Assembly (NCBI GenBank): GCA_963729875.1
Contig: CAVSPR010000010.1
Coordinates: 77,704 to 141,703 of the forward strand
Direction: 5' to 3'
DNA from: an uncultured Acidobacteriota bacterium
Lineage (GTDB): Bacteria; Acidobacteriota; Vicinamibacteria; Fen-336
DNA: 64,000 nucleotides
Shown here: piece by piece, positions 3,001 to 40,132 of the stretch
Position numbering within the stretch: the stretch's first letter is position 1
Layout: every line of letters begins with the position of its first letter
Notes under the pieces: model-generated
Databases searched by the model: none
What the model was told of the DNA's origin: nothing
Seen by the model: the letters and a program-made list of their open reading frames with translations, nothing else
Made by a program: the position numbers and the translations under genes

Positions 3001-6000
3001 CGACGCCAGCCTCAACGTCATCGGCACGACGACGACGGCCGCGGACGGCACGTTCACCTTCAGCGGCCTCGCCGGCGGCGGCGCCGACTACACGACCCGG
3101 CTCAGCGACACCACCGGCGTCCTCGCGCAACTACTTCGGCACGACCACCTACGCCCAGGCGCGGCAGCGCGCCGAGAGCAAGTCTGGCCGGCGAGCCGTG
3201 GACCGCACGGCCGCGCCCAGCTACGGCTTCCGCGCCTCGCGGAGCATCGGCGACACGATCTTCTACGACCTCAACGGCGACACGGCGTCCAGGACCCGGC
3301 GAGAACGGGATCGCCGGGGTCGCCGTGAGCCTCTACCGGGACCCCAACGGCAACGGGCGTCATCGACGACCGGCGCGACGACTGCCTGGTGGGCGGCAGC
3401 GTCACGACGGACGCCAACGGGCAGTACCTCTTCGCGGGGCTCGTCAACGCCAACTACATCGTGAGCGTGCCGATCCCCGCCGGCTACACCTTCAAGGGTC
3501 CCGGCCACGGACAGCGACGGCGGGACGGCCGGGATCCAGAAGGGACGGCACGATGGCCGGGCCGCGAACATCCTCGACGTCGACTTCGGCTTCCAGGCCC
3601 ACGAACCCAGCGCACCATCTCGGGCATCATCTGGAACGACGCCGACGCCAACGGGGTGATCGACGGCGGCGAGTCCGGCATCGCCGGCGTGACACTGGAC
3701 GTCGCTCGCTCGGGGACCGACGGTCGTGGCCACGGTGACCACCGACGCCACGGCGACCTACTCGGTCGTCCGGCCTGCCGAACAGCGCCTACACGTCCGG
3801 GTGACCGACACCGACGCGTCCTCACCGGCTACGCGCCGACCTACGAGAAGACCGAAGGCACGACGGCGCCCTTCAACTACCAGGAGTCGGTCGACTCGTC
3901 CGCCGGCAACGTCACGGACGTCGAACTTCGGCTACGCGAAGCCGCTGCCGACCTACGCGGCGATCGCCTCCTGAGGGCGTACCTGGCCGCGGGGTCGGTC
4001 ACCGTGGAGTGGCGCACGTCGCTCGAGGTGGGGACGGTCGGGTTCCACCTCCTGCGGCTCGACCCGCGACGCGGGCAGTACGTGCAGCTCACCGAGCGGC
4101 TCCTGCCGGGCCTCGTCGTGCACCCGCAGGGCGGCGTCTATCGCTTCGCGACGCGGGGGCGCCCACGGAGGGGCGGCTCACCTACAGCTCGCTGGAGCTG
4201 GACGTCCGCGGCCGCGCGCACCCGTACGGGCCGTACGCCGTCTCCGTGTCCCCGGGCGGCGCCCCGGGCCCTCGATGAGCGCGGCGCACCGGGACCTGCG
4301 AGTCGCGGGCGTTCAGCCGCCAGGCCGTCGGCCCGACGCGCGATGCGACTGGCCCTTCGCGCGACCGTCGCCGAAGCCGAGCGGCAGGTGGCGTCTCATC
4401 GGACGAGGTTGCGGCGACAGGGCCGGGTCCTCAAGGTCACGACGCGGGAGGCGGGATCCACTACCTCTCCGCCGCCGCCATGGCCCCGCCCCTCGGCCTG
4501 CCCGCGGAGAGGGTCGCGGGCCTGATCCGCACCGGTCGGCTCACGCTCAGCCACCGCGGGCGCGTCGGTGCCGCTACCTGCCGGACGAGCGGGGACGCGG
4601 GATCTACTTCTACGCCGAGCCGGTCGGGAGCCCCTACACGGACGAGAACGCCTACTGGGTGACCGTCACCCCGGGTCCGACCATGAGCGCCCGGCCCGCC
4701 CCGCCGGCAGGGCTCCTCGCCACCTCCTTCACGGAGACGGTGCACCGCGAGGAGGACCAGTATCCCCTGCCGGTGTACTTCCGGGACCCGGAGCGGGACT
4801 TCTGGGTCTGGGACTACCTCTACGCGGGGTACGACGGGGTCGACGCGAGGAGCTTCACGATTCGCGCGGACGGGCGTCGCCGGGTACGGCGACGCGTCGC
4901 TGACCGTCCACCTCCTCGGCGGCACCGACAGCGTGCCCGGCGACGACCACCACGTCCAGGTCCTCTTCAACGGGCAGCCGGTGGGCGAGGCGCGGTGGGA
5001 CGGGCTCGCCCCTTCGACATCGAGTTCCCCGTCGCGTCCGGCAGCGTCCTCGAGGGGGACAACGTCGTGGAGCTGAGGGCCGTGCTCGACGCGGGCGTCG
5101 CCGAGAGCCTCCTCTACGTCGACTCCTTCGACCTGACGTACGAGCGTCGCTACCAGGCCGTCGACGACGTCCTGTCCTTCACCGCCGCGACCGGGACCGG
5201 CGTCGCCGTCGGCGGCTTCTCCGGGCCCGAGGTGATGCTCTTCGACGTGACCCTGCCCTCGCGCCCGGTCCTGGTGACGGGCTACCGTCTCCGCCGGGCG
5301 ACGGCCGGTACGAGGTGCGCTTCGGCGCGGCGGGGACCGGCGAGCCGGCGCTACCAGGCTCTGCTGCCCGGCCGCGCGAAGTCGCCGGCGGCGTGGCGGC
5401 GTGGCAGGACGCCGGCCTGCGCCGGAGGCGAACGCGGCGGACTACGTCCTCGTGGCCCCCGAGTCCCTCCTGGACGCCGCGCAGTCGCTGGCCGAGTACC
5501 GCCGGAGCCAGGGCCTCGCCACGATGGTCGTGGGGCTCGAGGACATCTACGACGAGTTCAACGCCGGCATCGCCGAGCCCCCCGCCATCCGGGCCTTCCT
5601 GCGCCACGCGACGTCCCGCTGGAGCACGGCCGCCGCGGTACGTGACGCTCGTGGGCCGCGGGACCTACGACTACCGGGACCTGCGGGGCTTCGGCGACAA
5701 CCTCGTCCCCACGCTGCTCGTCGGCTCGCCCGACGGCCTCGTCGCCTCCGACGTCGCCTTCGCCGACCTCTCCGGCGACGACGGCATTCCCGAGATCGCG
5801 CTCGGGCGCCTGCCGGTCGTCACCGCCGCGGACTCGCGGACTACCTCGCGAAGATCCAGGCCCACGAGAGCGCGGCGAGCGGCGAGTGGCAGCGCCGGGT
5901 GCTCCTGACCGCGGACAACCCGGACGCGGCGGGCAACTTCACCGGCCGACAGCGACTCCGTGGCCGCGCTCGCTCCCGCCGGACTACACGGCGAGCAGGG

Positions 6001-33785: not shown

Positions 33786-35993
33786 ATGATCGCCGCGGAC
33801 GTCTTCCCTCCGATGGCCGATTCCCGCCTTCCCGCCGACCCGGTCCTGGACATACGCGTCCGCTGGCGTCTCGGGCGGGTGCTCCTGGGGGTCGCGGCGT
33901 TCCTCACGGTCGTGGCGCTCGCCCGGCCCCTCGCGCCATGGGCGCCGGGCTGGCTCAAGGCCGCCGACGCGCTCCTGGTCGGCCTGGGTGTCACCGCCTC
34001 CGCCCTCCTCGCGAGCCTGCGCGGGAAGAAGCTCCCGGAGACCCTGGCCCTCCACGCCTTCCTCGTCCTCTCCGTCGACGCGCTCGGCCAGGTGATCGGC
34101 GCCCGCGGCTTCCCCGTCTGGCCCTTCATGGCGCTGCTCGTGGCGGCGCTGGCCGTCGCCGAAGGGCTCCCGGTCGCACTCGGCGTGGCGGGTCAGGCCA
34201 CGCTGCTCGCGCTCGCCGACGTCGTGCGGCCCCTCCTGCCGCCCGCGCCCCCGGGCGTCGCTCCCTTCTTCGACCCAAGGCCCGCCCTCGCCGCCGCCAT
34301 CGGCTACTTCGCCCTCGCCGTCGCCGTGAACCGCGCGCTCGCCGGCGAGAAGCAGCGGCTCAGCGCGACGCTCGCGGAGCTGGCGCGGCTCAAGCACGGC
34401 ATCGACCAGCTCGAGGACGAGCCGGGCGAGGCCCCGGCCTCGCCGGCGAGCGCGGCCGAGGCCCTGCGCCAGGTCACGGAGGAGGGCCGCCGCGCGCGCC
34501 ACCTCGACCGCGCGAGCGAGCTCGACGCGTCCCTGCAGCGGCTCGTGGACGTGGCGCACCTCGCGGTCGGGGCGCACTCTCTCCTCTACTTCGACCTCGA
34601 CCGCCAGCGCGAGCAGGCGCACCTGCGGGTGGCCCGCGGCCCGGCCGCGCTGCTGCCGGGGTGCGCGGCGCCGCTCGGGGCCGACCCCTTCTCGTTCCTC
34701 GTGGAGCGGGACCAGCCCTTCTACGCGACCGACTTCAAGAGGCTGCTCTGGGAGCTGCCGTGGTACCGCGGGCAGGTCAAGGTGGGCACGCTCCTGGTGG
34801 TCCCGGTGCGGTCCGGCGACGTTGCCGTCGGCGCCCTCGTGGCTGACCGGCTGGAGATCCAGGCCTTCACCGCCAACGAGCCGCGCCTGCTCGACGGCTT
34901 CGCCCGTCTCGCCGCGGAGGCGATCCAGCGCACCCGCGCCGCGCTCGGGCGCGAGGAGCTCGACGCGGAGTGGAAGGCGGTGTACCCGCTCTCGCAGCGG
35001 CTCGCCACCTTGTCGCGCGAGGCGGAGGTCCGGGAGCTGCTCCTGCGCGCCTCGCGCCACATCGCGAGCCTCGACGGCGGCGCGGTGGCGATGGCCGACG
35101 ACCTCGGCACCCGCTACGTGGTCGAGGCGGGCTTCGGGTGGCCGACGGACTTCCTGAAGCGCGAGGTGAGCCTCGACGAGCGCACGTGGGCCTCCTGGGT
35201 GCTGCGCAGCGCCGAGGAGGCCTACCTCCTCGACAGCGTCGCGGGGCACGAGGACCCCATGCCGGTCCTCGTCCTCGACGAGGGCTCGGGCCGCGCCGAG
35301 TCGCTCCTCGCCGTCCCCCTCCGGGCCCGCAACCGCACGCTCGGGGTCCTCGTCCTCACCGGGGCCCGCGGGGCCTTCGACGCCTCCTCCCGCCGCGTGC
35401 TCGAGATCCTCGCCAACCAGGCGGCCGCGACCATCCAGCTCATCAAGGACAAGGAGCAGCAGCGGCAGCTCGCGGTGCGCGACGGCCTGACCGGCCTCTA
35501 CAACCGGCGCGCCTTCAACGAGCTTCTCGCCGCGGCCATCGCCAACGAGGACCGCCGCCCCGGCGGCTCCCTCGGCCTCGCCATCCTCGACCTCGACCAC
35601 TTCAAGAAGCTCAACGACACCTACGGCCACCCGGCCGGTGACGCCGCGCTGCGCTCGCTCGCCCGCCTCCTGACCCAGCACCTGCGCAAGGGCGACCAGG
35701 CGGCCCGCTACGGCGGGGAGGAGTTCGTGGTCATCCTGCCCGGCTCCGACGAGGAGCGGTCGATGGGCGCGGCCGAGCGCCTGCGCAGCGCCCTCGAGAA
35801 GCACCGCTTCGTCCACGAGGGGGCCCGCATCCTCCTCACCGCGAGCCTGGGGGTCGCGGTGTGGCCGGCGGACGGCCGCGAGCCGGACGCCCTGCTCGCC
35901 GCCTCCGACCGCGCCCTCTACGCCGCCAAGCAGTCCGGCCGCAACCGCGTGGTGTCGGCGTCGAGCGTCGCCCCGCCGGCCGAGCGGCCCTGA
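33786..35993 (+). CDS. Membrane-anchored GAF-GAF-GGDEF diguanylate cyclase
   Basis: 735-aa ORF; an alternative start is at 33813. N-terminal TM helices, two GAF-like regions, and C-terminal RDGLTGLYNRRAF..DLDHFKKLNDTYGHPAGD..RYGGEEFVVIL. Confidence 0.85.
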   Translation: MIAADVFPPMADSRLPADPVLDIRVRWRLGRVLLGVAAFLTVVALARPLAPWAPGWLKAADALLVGLGVTASALLASLRGKKLPETLALHAFLVLSVDALGQVIGARGFPVWPFMALLVAALAVAEGLPVALGVAGQATLLALADVVRPLLPPAPPGVAPFFDPRPALAAAIGYFALAVAVNRALAGEKQRLSATLAELARLKHGIDQLEDEPGEAPASPASAAEALRQVTEEGRRARHLDRASELDASLQRLVDVAHLAVGAHSLLYFDLDRQREQAHLRVARGPAALLPGCAAPLGADPFSFLVERDQPFYATDFKRLLWELPWYRGQVKVGTLLVVPVRSGDVAVGALVADRLEIQAFTANEPRLLDGFARLAAEAIQRTRAALGREELDAEWKAVYPLSQRLATLSREAEVRELLLRASRHIASLDGGAVAMADDLGTRYVVEAGFGWPTDFLKREVSLDERTWASWVLRSAEEAYLLDSVAGHEDPMPVLVLDEGSGRAESLLAVPLRARNRTLGVLVLTGARGAFDASSRRVLEILANQAAATIQLIKDKEQQRQLAVRDGLTGLYNRRAFNELLAAAIANEDRRPGGSLGLAILDLDHFKKLNDTYGHPAGDAALRSLARLLTQHLRKGDQAARYGGEEFVVILPGSDEERSMGAAERLRSALEKHRFVHEGARILLTASLGVAVWPADGREPDALLAASDRALYAAKQSGRNRVVSASSVAPPAERP

Positions 35994-36013
35994 CCGCCGT
36001 GCCGCACGACGGC

Positions 36014-36022
36014 TGATATGAT
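36014..36022 (+). promoter_or_regulatory. Candidate extended -10 promoter element (TGATATGAT) for gatED
   Basis: TG-N-TATGAT in an otherwise GC-rich spacer, 25 nt upstream of ATG 36047. A similar TGTTATGAT occurs at 33782-33790 in front of the cyclase gene. Confidence 0.3.
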
Positions 36023-36046
36023 GCGCTTCGCCCGCCCGGGCGCCCG

Positions 36047-38017
36047 ATGACCCGCCCCCTCGACCCCCCCCTCGACTACGCCGCGGTCGGCTTCATCTCC
36101 GGGCTCGAGGTCCACCAGCAGCTGCTGACGGAGAAGAAGCTCTTCTGCCAGTGCCCGGCGGGGCGCTACACCAGGACCCACGACGGGACGGTGCTGCGGC
36201 ACATGCGGCCCACCCTCTCCGAGCTCGGGGTCTACGACGGCACCGCGCTCATGGAGTTCAAGACCCGCAAGCACATCGTCTACCTCCTCAACCGGGCGAA
36301 CACCTGCACGTACGAGATGGACGACACCCCGCCCTTCCCGGTGAACCAGGCGGCGGTGGACGTGGCCATCGAGCAGTGCCTCATGCTCGGGTGCGACATC
36401 GTGGACGAGGTCCACATCGCGCGGAAGCAGTACCTGGACGGGTCGATCCCCACCGGCTTCCAGCGAACCGCGATCGTGGGCGTCAACGGGACGCTCCCCT
36501 TCCGGGGGCGCACGCTCTCGATCACGCAGGTCAGCGTCGAGGAGGACTCCTGCCGCGAGGTCTCGGACAAGGGCCACCTCATCGTCTGGCGCACCGACCG
36601 GCTCGGCATGCCGCTCATCGAGACGGTCACCGGCCCCGACCTGCGCACGCCGGACGAGGTGGAGGAGGCGATCCTGCTCGTGGGCCGCGTGTGCCGCTCG
36701 ACGGGGCACGTGCGGGTGGGGATGGGCGCGAGCCGACAGGACGTGAACGTGTCGGTCCGGGGGGGACGGCGCGTCGAGATCAAGGGCGTCCCGCAGGCGG
36801 GCTGGGCGCCGCGGCTCGTCCACGGCGAGGCCTGGCGGCAGGTCAACCTGCTGCGGCTGCGCGACGAGCTCTTCGGCCGCGGCTTCCGGGGCGCCTACGA
36901 CGTGCGGGTCGAGACGACGGACGTCACCGGCTTCGTCGGCTCGTCCTCCCTCGCCCCCCTGCGCGCGGAGAGCTGGGAGTGGTTCGTGCGCAGCCAGAGC
37001 CGGCGCCCGGGCTTCGAGCTGGGGCACGGGCCGTTCCGCGTGCTCGCCGTGCGCCTGCCCGGGCTCGCGGGCACGCTCTCCTGGCCGACCCAGCCGGGAC
37101 GCACGTTCGCCGACGAGCTGGCCGGCCGCGTCCGCGTGATCGCGGGACTCGACCAGCCGCCCATCCTCTTCCACTCCGAGGCGTGGCCGCGGGAGGCGGG
37201 GGAGCACCTCGCGCGGCTACGGGCGACGGCGCGCTGCGGGGAGAAGGACGGCCTCGTCCTCGTCTGGGGGCCGGAGCGCGACGTGCACACGGCGGCGGAC
37301 GAGATCCGGCTGCGCTACGTGGATGCGACGGACGGCGTCCCGAACGAGACGCGGCAGCCCTTCCCGGACGGCTCGACCGACTTCGAGCGCATCCTGCCCG
37401 GGCCCGACCGCATGTATCCCGACACCGACTCCCCGCCCACGCGGGTGACACGCGACCGCGTCGATCGCCTGCGGGCGGCCCTGCCCGAGCGGCCGTGGGA
37501 TCGCGAGGCGCGTTACGCGGCGGCCGGCGTGCCCCTTCCCGTCGCGCACTACCTCGTCCGGCGGGGGGGCGCCGCCCTCGTGGACCGCGTGGTGGCGGAG
37601 GCGAAGGCGGACCTGCGCTTCGCCGCGTTCTTCTTCGGCGAGCGTCTCAAGGGCCTGCGTCGCGCCGGCGTGCCCGTCGACGCGATTCCCGGCGACGCGT
37701 GGGTCGACCTCTTCCACGCGCTCGCGGCGCGCCCGGCCCGCCGCGAGGCCTGGGCGATCCTGGTCCGACGGATGGCGTATCGTCCCGGGGAAAGCCTGGC
37801 CGGCCTTCTCGGCGAGCTGGGTCTCGACCACGAGCCGCCCGGGTGGCGGGAGATGCTCCCGCGCTGGGTGGAGGCGGCGGAGCATGAGGCCTACGACCGG
37901 GACCCCGGCCGCATCCTCCGCCACGCGGCGGGGCAGGTGATGGACACGCTGCGCGGACGGGTCACGGCGAGCGTCGTTCTCGAGGCGATCCGGTCGGCCG
38001 CGGAGGTGAGGCCGTGA
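36047..38017 (+). CDS. gatE: Archaeal-type Glu-tRNA(Gln) amidotransferase subunit E
   Basis: Intact 656 aa. Contains GLEVHQQL..KLFCQCP, RPTLSELG, TCTYEMDDTPP, DEVHIARKQYLDGSIPTGFQRT, SVEEDSCRE, RLGMPLIETVTGPD and ASRQDVNVSV..RVEIKGV. From memory these match the GatE N-terminal catalytic cradle. Confidence 0.85.
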   Translation: MTRPLDPPLDYAAVGFISGLEVHQQLLTEKKLFCQCPAGRYTRTHDGTVLRHMRPTLSELGVYDGTALMEFKTRKHIVYLLNRANTCTYEMDDTPPFPVNQAAVDVAIEQCLMLGCDIVDEVHIARKQYLDGSIPTGFQRTAIVGVNGTLPFRGRTLSITQVSVEEDSCREVSDKGHLIVWRTDRLGMPLIETVTGPDLRTPDEVEEAILLVGRVCRSTGHVRVGMGASRQDVNVSVRGGRRVEIKGVPQAGWAPRLVHGEAWRQVNLLRLRDELFGRGFRGAYDVRVETTDVTGFVGSSSLAPLRAESWEWFVRSQSRRPGFELGHGPFRVLAVRLPGLAGTLSWPTQPGRTFADELAGRVRVIAGLDQPPILFHSEAWPREAGEHLARLRATARCGEKDGLVLVWGPERDVHTAADEIRLRYVDATDGVPNETRQPFPDGSTDFERILPGPDRMYPDTDSPPTRVTRDRVDRLRAALPERPWDREARYAAAGVPLPVAHYLVRRGGAALVDRVVAEAKADLRFAAFFFGERLKGLRRAGVPVDAIPGDAWVDLFHALAARPARREAWAILVRRMAYRPGESLAGLLGELGLDHEPPGWREMLPRWVEAAEHEAYDRDPGRILRHAAGQVMDTLRGRVTASVVLEAIRSAAEVRP

Positions 38018-39402
38018 GCGCCCCCGATCCCCTCAAGGGCTACAAGGGCCGGGCCCGGGCGCGGCTCGAGGGCTTCGGCGTCCGGGTGTGGAGCGACGTG
38101 CGCGCCACGAACGACGCCGGCAGCGTCTTCGAGGGCGTGATCCTGCCCCGCAGCGAGACCCTCGACGACGAGCACGTCGTCATCAAGCTCAAGACCGGCT
38201 ACAACGTCGGCCTCCACGTCGACCGGGTTCGGACGATGGGCGAGGTCGGGTACAAGGAAGCCGTCTACAAGATCCCGGAGAAGGAGTTCCCCTCGCGGCC
38301 GGAGCTGCCGACGGTCACGCTCCTCGGCACCGGGGGGACGATCGCCTCGCGCCTCGACTACCGGACGGGCGCGGTGATCCCCGCCTTCACGCCCGGCGAG
38401 CTCTACGGCGCGGTGCCGGAGCTCGCCGACCTCGCGAACCTCACCACGAAGAAGCTCTTCGGCGTCTTCTCGGAGAACATGGCGAAGGAGCAGTACGTGG
38501 CCCTCGCCGAGGCCATCGGCCGCGAGATCGAGGACGGGGTGGACGGCATCGTGATCGGCCACGGCACCGACACCATGGGCCACACCGCGGCGATCCTGTC
38601 CTTCATGGTCCAGGACACCCCGGTGCCGATCGTGATGGTCGGCTCGCAGCGCTCGAGCGACCGGCCCTCGAGCGACGCCGCGCTCAACCTGATCCACGCG
38701 GTCCGGGCCGCGGGCCGGGGCGAGATCGCCGAGGTCCAGATCTGCATGTTCGGCCCGACCTCGGACCAGTACGCGCTGCTGCACCGCGGCACGCGCTGCC
38801 GCAAGATGCACAGCTCGTACCGGTCCACCTTCCGCACCATCGGCGGCATCCCTCTTGCCATGGTGGGCGACGACTTCACGTACCTCTCCGACGACTTCCG
38901 CCGCCGCGACCGCTCGGGCAAGGTGAAGGTGGACACGGCCTACGAGGACCGGACGACCATCCTCTACTACTACCCGGGGATGAAGCCGGACCTCGTGGAC
39001 GCGCTCGTCGAGAAGGGCTACCGCGGGATCGTGATCGCGGGGACGGGCCTCGGGCACGTCAACAAGCCGCTCTACCCGGCGCTCGAGCGCGCGGTGGCGG
39101 CGGGCGTCCACGTGGTGATGACCGTGCAGACGCTCTGGGGCTACGCCCAGATGTACGTCTACGACACCGGGCGCGACCTTCTCGACCTCGGCATCGTGCC
39201 CCTCGACAACATGCTGCCGGAGACGGCCCTCATGAAGCTGAGCTGGGTCCTCGGCCACACCGACGACCACGCCGAGGTGCTCCGCATGATGCGCCACCCG
39301 ATCAGCCACGAGACGACGGAGCGCGAGCCACACAACGGCTACCTCATCCTCCAGGGCGGGCTGCCGGAGACGGAGGAGTTCGTCTCCAGCCACTGGAAGT
39401 AG
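38014..39402 (+). CDS. gatD: Archaeal-type Glu-tRNA(Gln) amidotransferase subunit D (asparaginase-fold glutaminase)
   Basis: The GTG start overlaps the gatE stop (GTGA). Contains LGTGGTIASRLDYRTGAV, HGTDTMGHTAA, GSQRSSDRPSSDA and RKMHSSYRSTFR, the type I asparaginase/GatD signature blocks. Confidence 0.85.
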   Translation: MSAPDPLKGYKGRARARLEGFGVRVWSDVRATNDAGSVFEGVILPRSETLDDEHVVIKLKTGYNVGLHVDRVRTMGEVGYKEAVYKIPEKEFPSRPELPTVTLLGTGGTIASRLDYRTGAVIPAFTPGELYGAVPELADLANLTTKKLFGVFSENMAKEQYVALAEAIGREIEDGVDGIVIGHGTDTMGHTAAILSFMVQDTPVPIVMVGSQRSSDRPSSDAALNLIHAVRAAGRGEIAEVQICMFGPTSDQYALLHRGTRCRKMHSSYRSTFRTIGGIPLAMVGDDFTYLSDDFRRRDRSGKVKVDTAYEDRTTILYYYPGMKPDLVDALVEKGYRGIVIAGTGLGHVNKPLYPALERAVAAGVHVVMTVQTLWGYAQMYVYDTGRDLLDLGIVPLDNMLPETALMKLSWVLGHTDDHAEVLRMMRHPISHETTEREPHNGYLILQGGLPETEEFVSSHWK

Positions 39403-39465
39403 CGCCGGCTCTCCTGCGCGCGGTGCCTCCCCATCTCCGCCGGGGGCAATCGCGGCGGTCGATGG

Positions 39466-39471
39466 TATAGT
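39466..39471 (+). promoter_or_regulatory. Candidate -10 element (TATAGT) inside an AT-rich partial palindrome upstream of vapB
   Basis: TGGTATAGTAAGACTGGTAGGAGTATTACCATG: the TGGTA / TACCA arms flank the -10 and the AGGAG RBS. This is a plausible autoregulatory operator. Confidence 0.3.
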
Positions 39472-39492
39472 AAGACTGGTAGGAGTATTACC

Positions 39493-39717
39493 ATGCGCAT
39501 CACGTCCAAGGGGCAGGTCACGATCCCGCAGGAGATCCGGCTCCGGCTCGGGCTGCAGCCGGAGACCGAGGTCGAGTTCGATGTCGTCGGCAACGCGGTG
39601 AGGATGCGCAAGGTCGAGGGCCGCCCGGGCCGCGGCCGGGGGATCGTCGACCGCCTGCGCGGGCGCGCGACGACCCGGCTCACGACCGACCAGATCCTCG
39701 CCCTGACCCGGGGGTAG
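39493..39717 (+). CDS. vapB: AbrB/MazE/SpoVT-family antitoxin (VapB-type)
   Basis: 74 aa: MRITSKGQVTIPQEIRLRLGL, a SpoVT-AbrB looped-hinge helix motif. Confidence 0.8.
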   Translation: MRITSKGQVTIPQEIRLRLGLQPETEVEFDVVGNAVRMRKVEGRPGRGRGIVDRLRGRATTRLTTDQILALTRG

Positions 39718-39721
39718 CGGC

Positions 39722-40132
39722 ATGGCGGGGGTCCTCGTCGACAGCAACGTCCTCCTCGACGTCCTCACCGAGGACCCGGAGTGGTTCGCCTGGTCCTCGG
39801 AGGCGCTCGCGCGCTGCGCCGACGAGTCGGAGCTCGTCGTCAACCCGATCGTGTACGCGGAGGTGTCCGTCGGCTTCGGCCGGGTCGAGGACGTCGAGTC
39901 CGCCCTGCCCCCGGACGCCTTCATCCGCAGCCCGCTGCCGTGGGACGCGGCCTTCCTGGCCGGGAAGTGCTTCCAGGCCTACCGGCGTCGGGGCGGAGCG
40001 AAGCGTTCGCCGCTCCCCGACTTCTACATCGGCGCGCACGCGGCGGTGGCGGGGCTCTCGCTCCTCACCCGCGACCCCGTGCGGTACCGGACGTACTTCC
40101 CCAGGCTCCGGCTCGTCGCGCCTACTTCGTGA
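39722..40132 (+). CDS. vapC: PIN-domain ribonuclease toxin (VapC-type)
   Basis: 136 aa. VLVDSNVLLDVL (first acidic residue), ..NPIVYAEV.., DFYIGAHAAVAGLSLLTRD (conserved Asp pair context). Starts 4 nt after vapB. Confidence 0.85.
   Translation: MAGVLVDSNVLLDVLTEDPEWFAWSSEALARCADESELVVNPIVYAEVSVGFGRVEDVESALPPDAFIRSPLPWDAAFLAGKCFQAYRRRGGAKRSPLPDFYIGAHAAVAGLSLLTRDPVRYRTYFPRLRLVAPTS

Follow-up and report, generated by a model that had tools for sequence, protein, structure and literature searches.

The 64,000-nucleotide stretch of DNA analysed here (the window; positions 77,704 to 141,703 of contig CAVSPR010000010.1, assembly GCA_963729875.1) carries adjacent genes for GatE and GatD, the two subunits of an aminoacyl-tRNA amidotransferase with solved archaeal representatives. 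Its host is a bacterium of the phylum Acidobacteriota, class Vicinamibacteria, as placed by the names on close homologues, and is called a soil or wetland bacterium. A first-pass annotation of the window had described the pair as intact and translationally coupled. Both open reading frames (ORFs) lie exactly at the positions it gave, and the stop codon of gatE overlaps the start of gatD in a GTGA motif, a predicted translational coupling:

36047..38017, plus strand: gatE, tRNA-dependent kinase/amidotransferase subunit, 656 aa, ATG start (TIGR00134)
38014..39402, plus strand: gatD, asparaginase-like ammonia-releasing subunit, 462 aa, GTG start (TIGR02153)
38014..38017, plus strand: GTGA, in which the gatE stop codon shares bases with the gatD start codon (direct sequence reading)

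Scoring against curated family models assigned both proteins to GatDE. GatE reached 378 bits on the gatE model TIGR00134 (cut-off 319.55) and 451.2 bits on NF003107, slightly below that model's cut-off of 456, while its 104.8 bits on the gatB model TIGR00133, with a cut-off of 314.8, leave it outside the GatB family. GatD exceeded the cut-offs of both TIGR02153 (490.7 bits; cut-off 324) and NF003217 (488.1 bits; cut-off 310). A free type I asparaginase was considered as an alternative identity for GatD and discarded in view of the lower score on the corresponding subfamily model (TIGR00519, 361.3 bits, below both GatD equivalog scores), the presence of GatD_N and the coupling to gatE. Pfam found GatD_N (PF18195, 9e-12), Asparaginase and Asparaginase_C in GatD. 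In GatE, GatB_N, a profile of only 277 positions, matched across residues 18-471, so the profile must be split by a long insert; no separate Pfam match for the tail domain was listed at E ≤ 0.001. The span of GatB_N, together with an alignment to the archaeal structure 1zq1_C that extends to residue 649 of 656, indicates that the insertion domain and the YqeY-like C-terminal tail of GatE are kept. Domain analysis by Pfam and NCBIfam thus bears out the GatDE orthology proposed in the first-pass annotation.

Comparison with solved structures agreed with this assignment. GatE residues 9-649 align with 8-624 of Pyrococcus abyssi GatE (1zq1_C, E 3e-87), with 296.6 and 290.8 bits to the GatE chains of the archaeal structures 1ZQ1 and 2D6F, respectively, the latter from Methanothermobacter thermautotrophicus; GatD scored 396 bits to 1zq1_A and 395.8 to 2d6f_A. 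Both subunits therefore align over their full length with the archaeal enzymes and share their build, namely a cradle domain with insertion and C-terminal tail in GatE, and an N-domain followed by an asparaginase fold in GatD. Within the alignment to 1zq1_A, the GatD stretches GTGGTIAS, HGTDTM and RKMH, which we take to hold the asparaginase threonine nucleophile and the Thr-Lys-Asp triad, are identical. The magnesium ligands of M. thermautotrophicus GatE are given as His15, Glu157 and Glu184 in PMC2330236, and with the offset taken from the 2d6f_C alignment (query 9-280 to chain 1-271) they match H23, E165 and E192 of the window protein. As judged from these alignments, the catalytic residues of GatE and GatD are kept.

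Bacterial GatCAB (Staphylococcus aureus 2DF4, Thermus thermophilus 3KFU) is the other point of reference. GatE has a core homologous to GatB (90.1 bits to 3kfu_F), and by analogy the two systems would share the same chemistry and a tRNA substrate of the U1-A72 type. Unlike GatCAB, GatDE draws ammonia from the asparaginase-like GatD rather than from the amidase GatA and has no GatC, and its GatE contains an insertion domain that GatB is without (PMC2330236).

The wider family was explored in two ways. A search of representative sequences with GatE returned 647 clusters at E ≤ 1e-30, one block of which was 43-56% identical and the remainder 30-40%. A pattern scan of a species-representative genome collection yielded at least 599 stretches, from which 80 loci were kept, 52 with archaeal and 28 with bacterial titles. 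The latter comprised Myxococcota, Bacteroidota, Ignavibacteriota, Zixibacteria, Planctomycetota, Cloacimonadota, Krumholzibacteria, Aegiribacteria, Coatesbacteria, FCB group, Acidobacteriota, 'Eubacteriales', 'Hyphomicrobiales' and Limnocylindrales, and thus span about a dozen phyla. Among the 120 best GatE homologues listed, identities ranged from 71 to 92%; the named ones were mostly Vicinamibacteria or 'Acidobacteria bacterium', and two bore a Planctomycetes label. The closest named genomic locus among those kept was an 'Acidobacteriota bacterium' at 71% identity.

A quick IQ-TREE tree (LG+C20) was built from 100 rows, i.e. the window GatE, 20 loci from its own phylum, 78 named loci and a GatB outgroup, leaving out L051 and L103 (the latter under 560 aa). 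A single clade of 49 rows (Shimodaira-Hasegawa-like approximate likelihood ratio test, SH-aLRT, 92; branch 0.43) holds 26 of the 27 named bacterial and all 21 own-phylum rows; one Krumholzibacteria row was mislabelled as own phylum in the tree's group table. A FastTree run on the representatives recovered the same large clade. The window GatE belongs to a 9-row own-phylum clade with full support. Own-phylum rows fall into at least six subclades interspersed with other phyla, which argues for frequent exchange of gatE among bacteria. Of the candidate origins put forward in the first-pass annotation, a bacterial GatDE lineage is therefore the one that a phylogeny with archaeal references supports, all bacterial rows except one falling into a single clade that covers many phyla. 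The branch to the GatB outgroup amounts to 5.5 changes per column, and the tree does not resolve the Asgard, other archaeal and bacterial groups or the root; an old transfer, since ameliorated, is compatible with this topology, which gives neither root nor donor. The pair was not acquired from archaea in recent times.

Three observations on individual tree rows deserve mention. The sole bacterial row outside the clade, L090 from a 'Candidatus Limnocylindrales' metagenome-assembled genome (MAG), is nested in Bathyarchaeota; its gatD-gatE is nearly identical to that of Bathyarchaeota and has the archaeal gene order, so that the locus stems either from an archaeal contig binned wrongly or from transfer in the very recent past. 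Conversely, two Thermoplasmatota MAG rows (L083 and L110) lie inside the bacterial clade on long branches and have no gatD within 3 kb, which could reflect transfer from bacteria to archaea or an artefact of placement. Finally, the GatE proteins of L078 (Ignavibacteria MAG) and L097 (Zixibacteria MAG) are nearly identical, with end branches of 0.005 and 0.025, and their genes have the same neighbours (a methyltransferase and CstA); one of these MAGs is probably mislabelled.

Gene order sets the bacterial pairs apart from most archaeal ones. As in the window, gatE is followed by gatD in 20/20 own-phylum loci, where gatD is adjacent, and in 19 of the 28 named bacterial loci. Among the 52 archaeal loci, 30 have gatD before gatE, 12 are without gatD inside 3 kb, and 10 have gatE first; of the 40 archaeal loci in which the two genes are linked, 30 thus have gatD first. 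All ten gatE-first archaeal loci are Asgard-type, comprising L051 and nine rows of the tree's Asgard clade, with titles Promethearchaeota, Sigynarchaeum and Jordarchaeales, or, for three loci, 'uncultured archaeon' only. The order common to bacteria and Asgard archaea hints at an old exchange between the two groups. The neighbours of gatE vary across 47 bacterial loci. In two of these, the gene directly upstream on the same strand encodes glutamine synthetase, and in a third AsnA, which hints at a local supply of amide donor:

L029 5429-6949; L085 1913-2941; L121 1578-2618, each on the same strand as gatE: glutamine synthetase or AsnA upstream of gatE

The distribution within the phylum was profiled in a sample of 401 genomes, which included the window's own genome (G000) and three unpublished ones (G024, G049 and G152, counted as GatE-negative and used for no other claim). 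gatE exceeded the cut-off in 62/401, G000 included, and fragments occurred in three more. Along with the 599 or more stretches above, this count overturns the rarity of bacterial GatDE that the first-pass annotation had implied. Within the window's class of 251 genomes, a gatE match at E ≤ 1e-60 turned up in 21, and 19 of these also exceeded the cut-off. At the same threshold it occurred in 16 of the 58 other genomes of the family and 8 of the 16 others of the genus; two more families contributed two genomes each, and the remaining 19 families had none. gatD exceeded its cut-off in 63 of the 64 other GatE carriers and was nearly always immediately downstream. gatB, by comparison, exceeded its cut-off in just 23 of these 64, with an N-terminal fragment in G026, and 40 of them gave no gatB match except the self-hit of GatE. 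Sub-threshold GatB-type matches, unchecked individually, were present in 290 of the 336 GatE-negative genomes, the other 46 having none. In a control sample of 80 GatE-negative genomes, taken in list order with unpublished ones excluded, glnS was over the cut-off in 53 and asnS in 78. Across the phylum, asparaginyl-tRNA synthetase (AsnRS) is thus nearly universal, glutaminyl-tRNA synthetase (GlnRS) is common, and most members retain one amidotransferase, with GatDE tending to occupy the place of a missing GatCAB.

Two further markers were tried and set aside. The copy number of glutamyl-tRNA synthetase (GluRS) as a sign of a GluRS2-GatDE module showed no link among 80 genomes, in all of which GluRS was found: most GatDE-only families have one, and controls of family f31 negative for both GatE and GatB often have two. 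The lack of an asparagine synthetase as proof of an asparagine role gave a mixed pattern, with an asn_synth_AEB gene over the cut-off in 48 of the 65 carriers (three copies in G000) and none in 17, the latter including all four members of genus g46 and all four of family f30.

Within the genus, the pair behaves as a long-standing resident. Two of its other genomes, G463 and G515, carry GGDEF-gatE-gatD as one contiguous block, 78-81% identical in nucleotide sequence, and a third (G467) has gatED at 87%; there (G467:C48:4251-6307), about 2 kb separates the GGDEF gene from gatE, a distance of 53 nt in G000. In comparisons with G463, G515 and G467, the ratio of nonsynonymous to synonymous substitution rates (dN/dS) was 0.18-0.26 for gatE and 0.11-0.16 for gatD, as opposed to 0.28-0.29 for the neighbouring GGDEF gene, with similar synonymous divergence (dS; 0.31-0.64 for gatE and gatD, 0.59-0.68 for the neighbour). 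Purifying selection acts on gatE and gatD no less strongly than on the GGDEF neighbour. A further member of the genus (G435, 86% complete) is without exactly the 3.4-kb gatED cassette at the same locus: about 85 nt lead from the GGDEF stop codon to the conserved vapB region that precedes a small ORF and a PIN gene, and window positions 39463-39540 align with L132 at about 4100-4180 of G435. This comparison marks the edges of the cassette:

35994..36046, no strand assigned: spacer of 53 nt separating gatE from the GGDEF gene, left cassette edge
39403..39492, no strand assigned: spacer after gatD with the conserved region before the small ORF, right cassette edge

Synteny, dN/dS and the absence of the cassette from G435 indicate a pair of long standing in the genus that is constrained in its carriers and can be lost, and gatED looks like an accessory, dispensable operon. 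RNA-type libraries (four runs) contained only short contigs with, mostly, 90-95% likeness over parts of gatE and gatD; they derive from relatives, and DNA may be present in libraries of this kind.

The cassette is embedded in bacterial surroundings:

33786..35993, plus strand: GAF-GGDEF diguanylate cyclase gene, flanking (Pfam GGDEF 2.7e-47, GAF domains; syntenic with gatED in G463 and G515)
39722..40132, plus strand: PIN-domain (VapC-like) gene, flanking (Pfam PIN 7.7e-10)

Other neighbours identified by Pfam encode an ABC ATPase, a LolA-like protein and MacB/FtsX permeases. Bacterial neighbours had been named before from the translations, and Pfam confirmed the GGDEF cyclase, the PIN gene and the LolA-like protein among them. 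The GC content of the pair, earlier estimated by eye to equal that of its neighbours, was 0.738 and 0.700 in the two 2-kb windows over gatE and gatD, inside the whole-window range of 0.695-0.755. An archaeal or chimeric contig, raised earlier as a possible objection, was not what we found: this is a bacterial contig that shares synteny with relatives of the same genus. A near-palindrome (GGTATAGTAAGAC...GTATTACC) at 39463-39495, which is kept in G435, lies immediately ahead of the small ORF in front of the PIN gene and looks like a toxin-antitoxin operator.

We then consider the host's own translation machinery. G000 comprises 5.74 Mb in 11 contigs and is 86% complete. As the first-pass annotation had recommended, it was searched for gatCAB, glnS and asnS, and all exceeded their cut-offs: gatB (571.8 bits, contig C7), gatA (596.3 bits), gatC (74.3 bits, directly upstream of gatA), glnS (513.7 bits) and asnS (443.9 bits). 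There are two GluRS genes, the one on contig C3 being proteobacterial-like (Protein Data Bank search: 4g6z, 593.5 bits). A tRNA-Glu(CUC) gene adjoins glnS and gltX, both of them frameshifted in the assembly (see below), and gltX and glnS are neighbours in many genomes of the phylum. A U1-A72 pair is present in tRNA-Asn and in the two tRNA-Gln genes (UUG and CUG), and likewise in tRNA-Gln(UUG) of 5/5 GatDE-only genomes from different families. According to PMC2330236, archaeal GatDE reads A1-U72 and the D-loop of tRNA(Gln); since the hosts' tRNA-Gln is U1-A72, tRNA recognition by bacterial GatDE must differ from the archaeal mode. The tRNA complement also contains tRNA-SeC. A 91-nt 'tRNA-Glu(ctc)' called by ARAGORN at G000:C4:1210639-1210729 is un-tRNA-like in sequence and probably a false call.

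The window holds a genuine, intact GatDE of the bacterial branch, long resident and accessory, and we consider it probable, though short of firm, that it serves a Glu-tRNA(Gln) route parallel to GlnRS. By homology to the archaeal enzyme, whose architecture and reaction are described in PMC2330236, a GatD dimer would bind two GatE subunits; GatD would free ammonia from glutamine or asparagine, and the ammonia would reach GatE via a tunnel, where the side-chain carboxyl of a mischarged aminoacyl-tRNA would be phosphorylated with ATP and magnesium and then amidated. The most likely substrate would be Glu-tRNA(Gln) from a putative, not fully discriminating GluRS, with a tRNA of the bacterial U1-A72 type and hence a recognition unlike the archaeal one. 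Glu-tRNA(Gln) is favoured because chemistry, insertion domain and tail have all been retained and because GatDE alternates with GatCAB across the phylum. As GlnRS, AsnRS and GatCAB are encoded in the same genome, GatDE would act as a parallel or safeguard route rather than as the sole means of glutamine decoding, filling the role of a 'surplus amidotransferase' held by GatCAB in most relatives.

Several findings weigh against this assignment. The GatDE, GatCAB, GlnRS and AsnRS routes all coexist in G000, and among the 64 other GatE carriers glnS was over the cut-off in 60 and asnS in 62, so that a need for GatDE is not derivable where GlnRS and AsnRS are nearly always present. These counts are a pattern and not a statistical test, because the genomes are related and not independent. 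No dedicated second GluRS accompanies GatDE in the 80 genomes, most GatDE-only genomes having one. The archaeal identity element A1-U72 is absent from the host tRNA(Gln), and activity of GatDE on a U1-A72 tRNA(Gln) is an assumption. Lastly, the G000 assembly has one frame change each in glnS and the adjacent gltX (G000:C9:314821-318100). These are probably long-read indel errors, a reading based on the frameshift in the adjacent gltX as well and on the 86% completeness, a figure that such errors may themselves have caused; if the glnS frameshift were real, GatDE or GatCAB would be more important in G000.

A bolder and more tentative possibility is a functionally shifted amidotransferase that has given up the archaeal A1-U72 rule for bacterial U1-A72 tRNAs, has taken over from GatCAB in many lineages a job other than plain decoding, given the presence of GlnRS and AsnRS, and may go back to an old exchange with Asgard archaea. 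That job could be the clearing of Glu-tRNA(Gln) left by a sloppy GluRS, or the making of glutamine, and perhaps asparagine, on tRNA from a local amide donor.

An asparagine role for bacterial GatDE, as an Asp-tRNA(Asn) amidotransferase acting alone or besides Glu-tRNA(Gln) in tRNA-dependent asparagine synthesis as with GatCAB, appears unlikely to us. It would explain why carriers keep an amidotransferase despite GlnRS and AsnRS, in 40 of 64 cases without GatB, and it fits with the U1-A72 pair common to bacterial tRNA(Asn) and tRNA(Gln), with the 17 carriers without asn_synth_AEB over the cut-off (all of g46 and f30 included) and with the AsnA or glutamine synthetase gene directly upstream of gatE in 3/47 bacterial loci. 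It also has a precedent in the 'surplus' GatCAB of Deinococcus, Thermus and Bdellovibrio (PMC4206432), which, like GatDE in G000 and in 60-62 of the 64 other carriers, is retained beside GlnRS and AsnRS; there, however, the enzyme is GatCAB, with a role in tRNA-bound asparagine synthesis established by experiment, whereas here it is GatDE, with a putative role. Against it stand the AsnB-type genes in 48/65 carriers, including the three copies of G000, and the availability of GatCAB in G000 for that very job. Moreover, PMC2330236 reports that archaeal GatDE rejects Asp-tRNA(Asn) and that the insertion domain of GatE, which is kept here, clashes in a model with class II aspartyl-tRNA synthetase (AspRS).

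Recruitment outside translation, for example as a free asparaginase/glutaminase or for the amidation of another carrier-bound acid, and redundant baggage nearing loss are quite improbable. Even inside one genus the pair is patchy and, at the same locus, cleanly missing from one member; a decoding need is not apparent and the neighbours vary widely. Yet purifying selection on both genes is at least as strong as on the neighbour, GatE retains the magnesium ligands of the kinase and its entire tRNA-binding architecture, gatE and gatD stay paired (20/20 own-phylum and 19/28 named bacterial loci; gatD in 63/64 carriers), and archaeal GatD is inactive without its tRNA substrate (PMC2330236).

Misplaced archaeal DNA, whether through chimerism of the contig, contamination in binning or very recent transfer, can be dismissed even though reviews call GatDE an archaeal signature protein and the 'Limnocylindrales' locus L090 does look archaeal, as it is refuted by the GC shared with the surroundings and the bacterial flanking genes, by nearest relatives that are all bacterial (71-92% identity), by the fully supported 9-row own-phylum clade in the GatE tree, by GGDEF-gatE-gatD in two other genomes of the genus and by a dS matching that of the neighbour.

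Unlike its archaeal counterparts, then, the window enzyme belongs to a bacterial host with GlnRS and a U1-A72 tRNA(Gln) and to a separate bacterial clade. GatDE is called an archaeal signature protein or archaea-only in PMC2330236 (2008), PMC8007984 (2021) and PMC9499178 (2022), and arguments on the last common ancestor and on the co-evolution of tRNA(Gln) and GatDE rest on this claim there. No paper describing a bacterial GatDE was found in full-text searches of the literature outside subscription papers, while public annotation already labels these bacterial proteins GatE. The window pair is an ordinary member of a large, old bacterial GatDE branch, annotated in databases and overlooked in the literature. 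To this branch the window adds one more example and a clean within-genus pair of presence and absence; otherwise it is like the other bacterial cases. The breadth of the bacterial GatDE clade undercuts the archaea-only claim, and its hosts, with their GlnRS, AsnRS and bacterial-type tRNA(Gln), raise the question of which tRNA and which amino acid bacterial GatDE serves.

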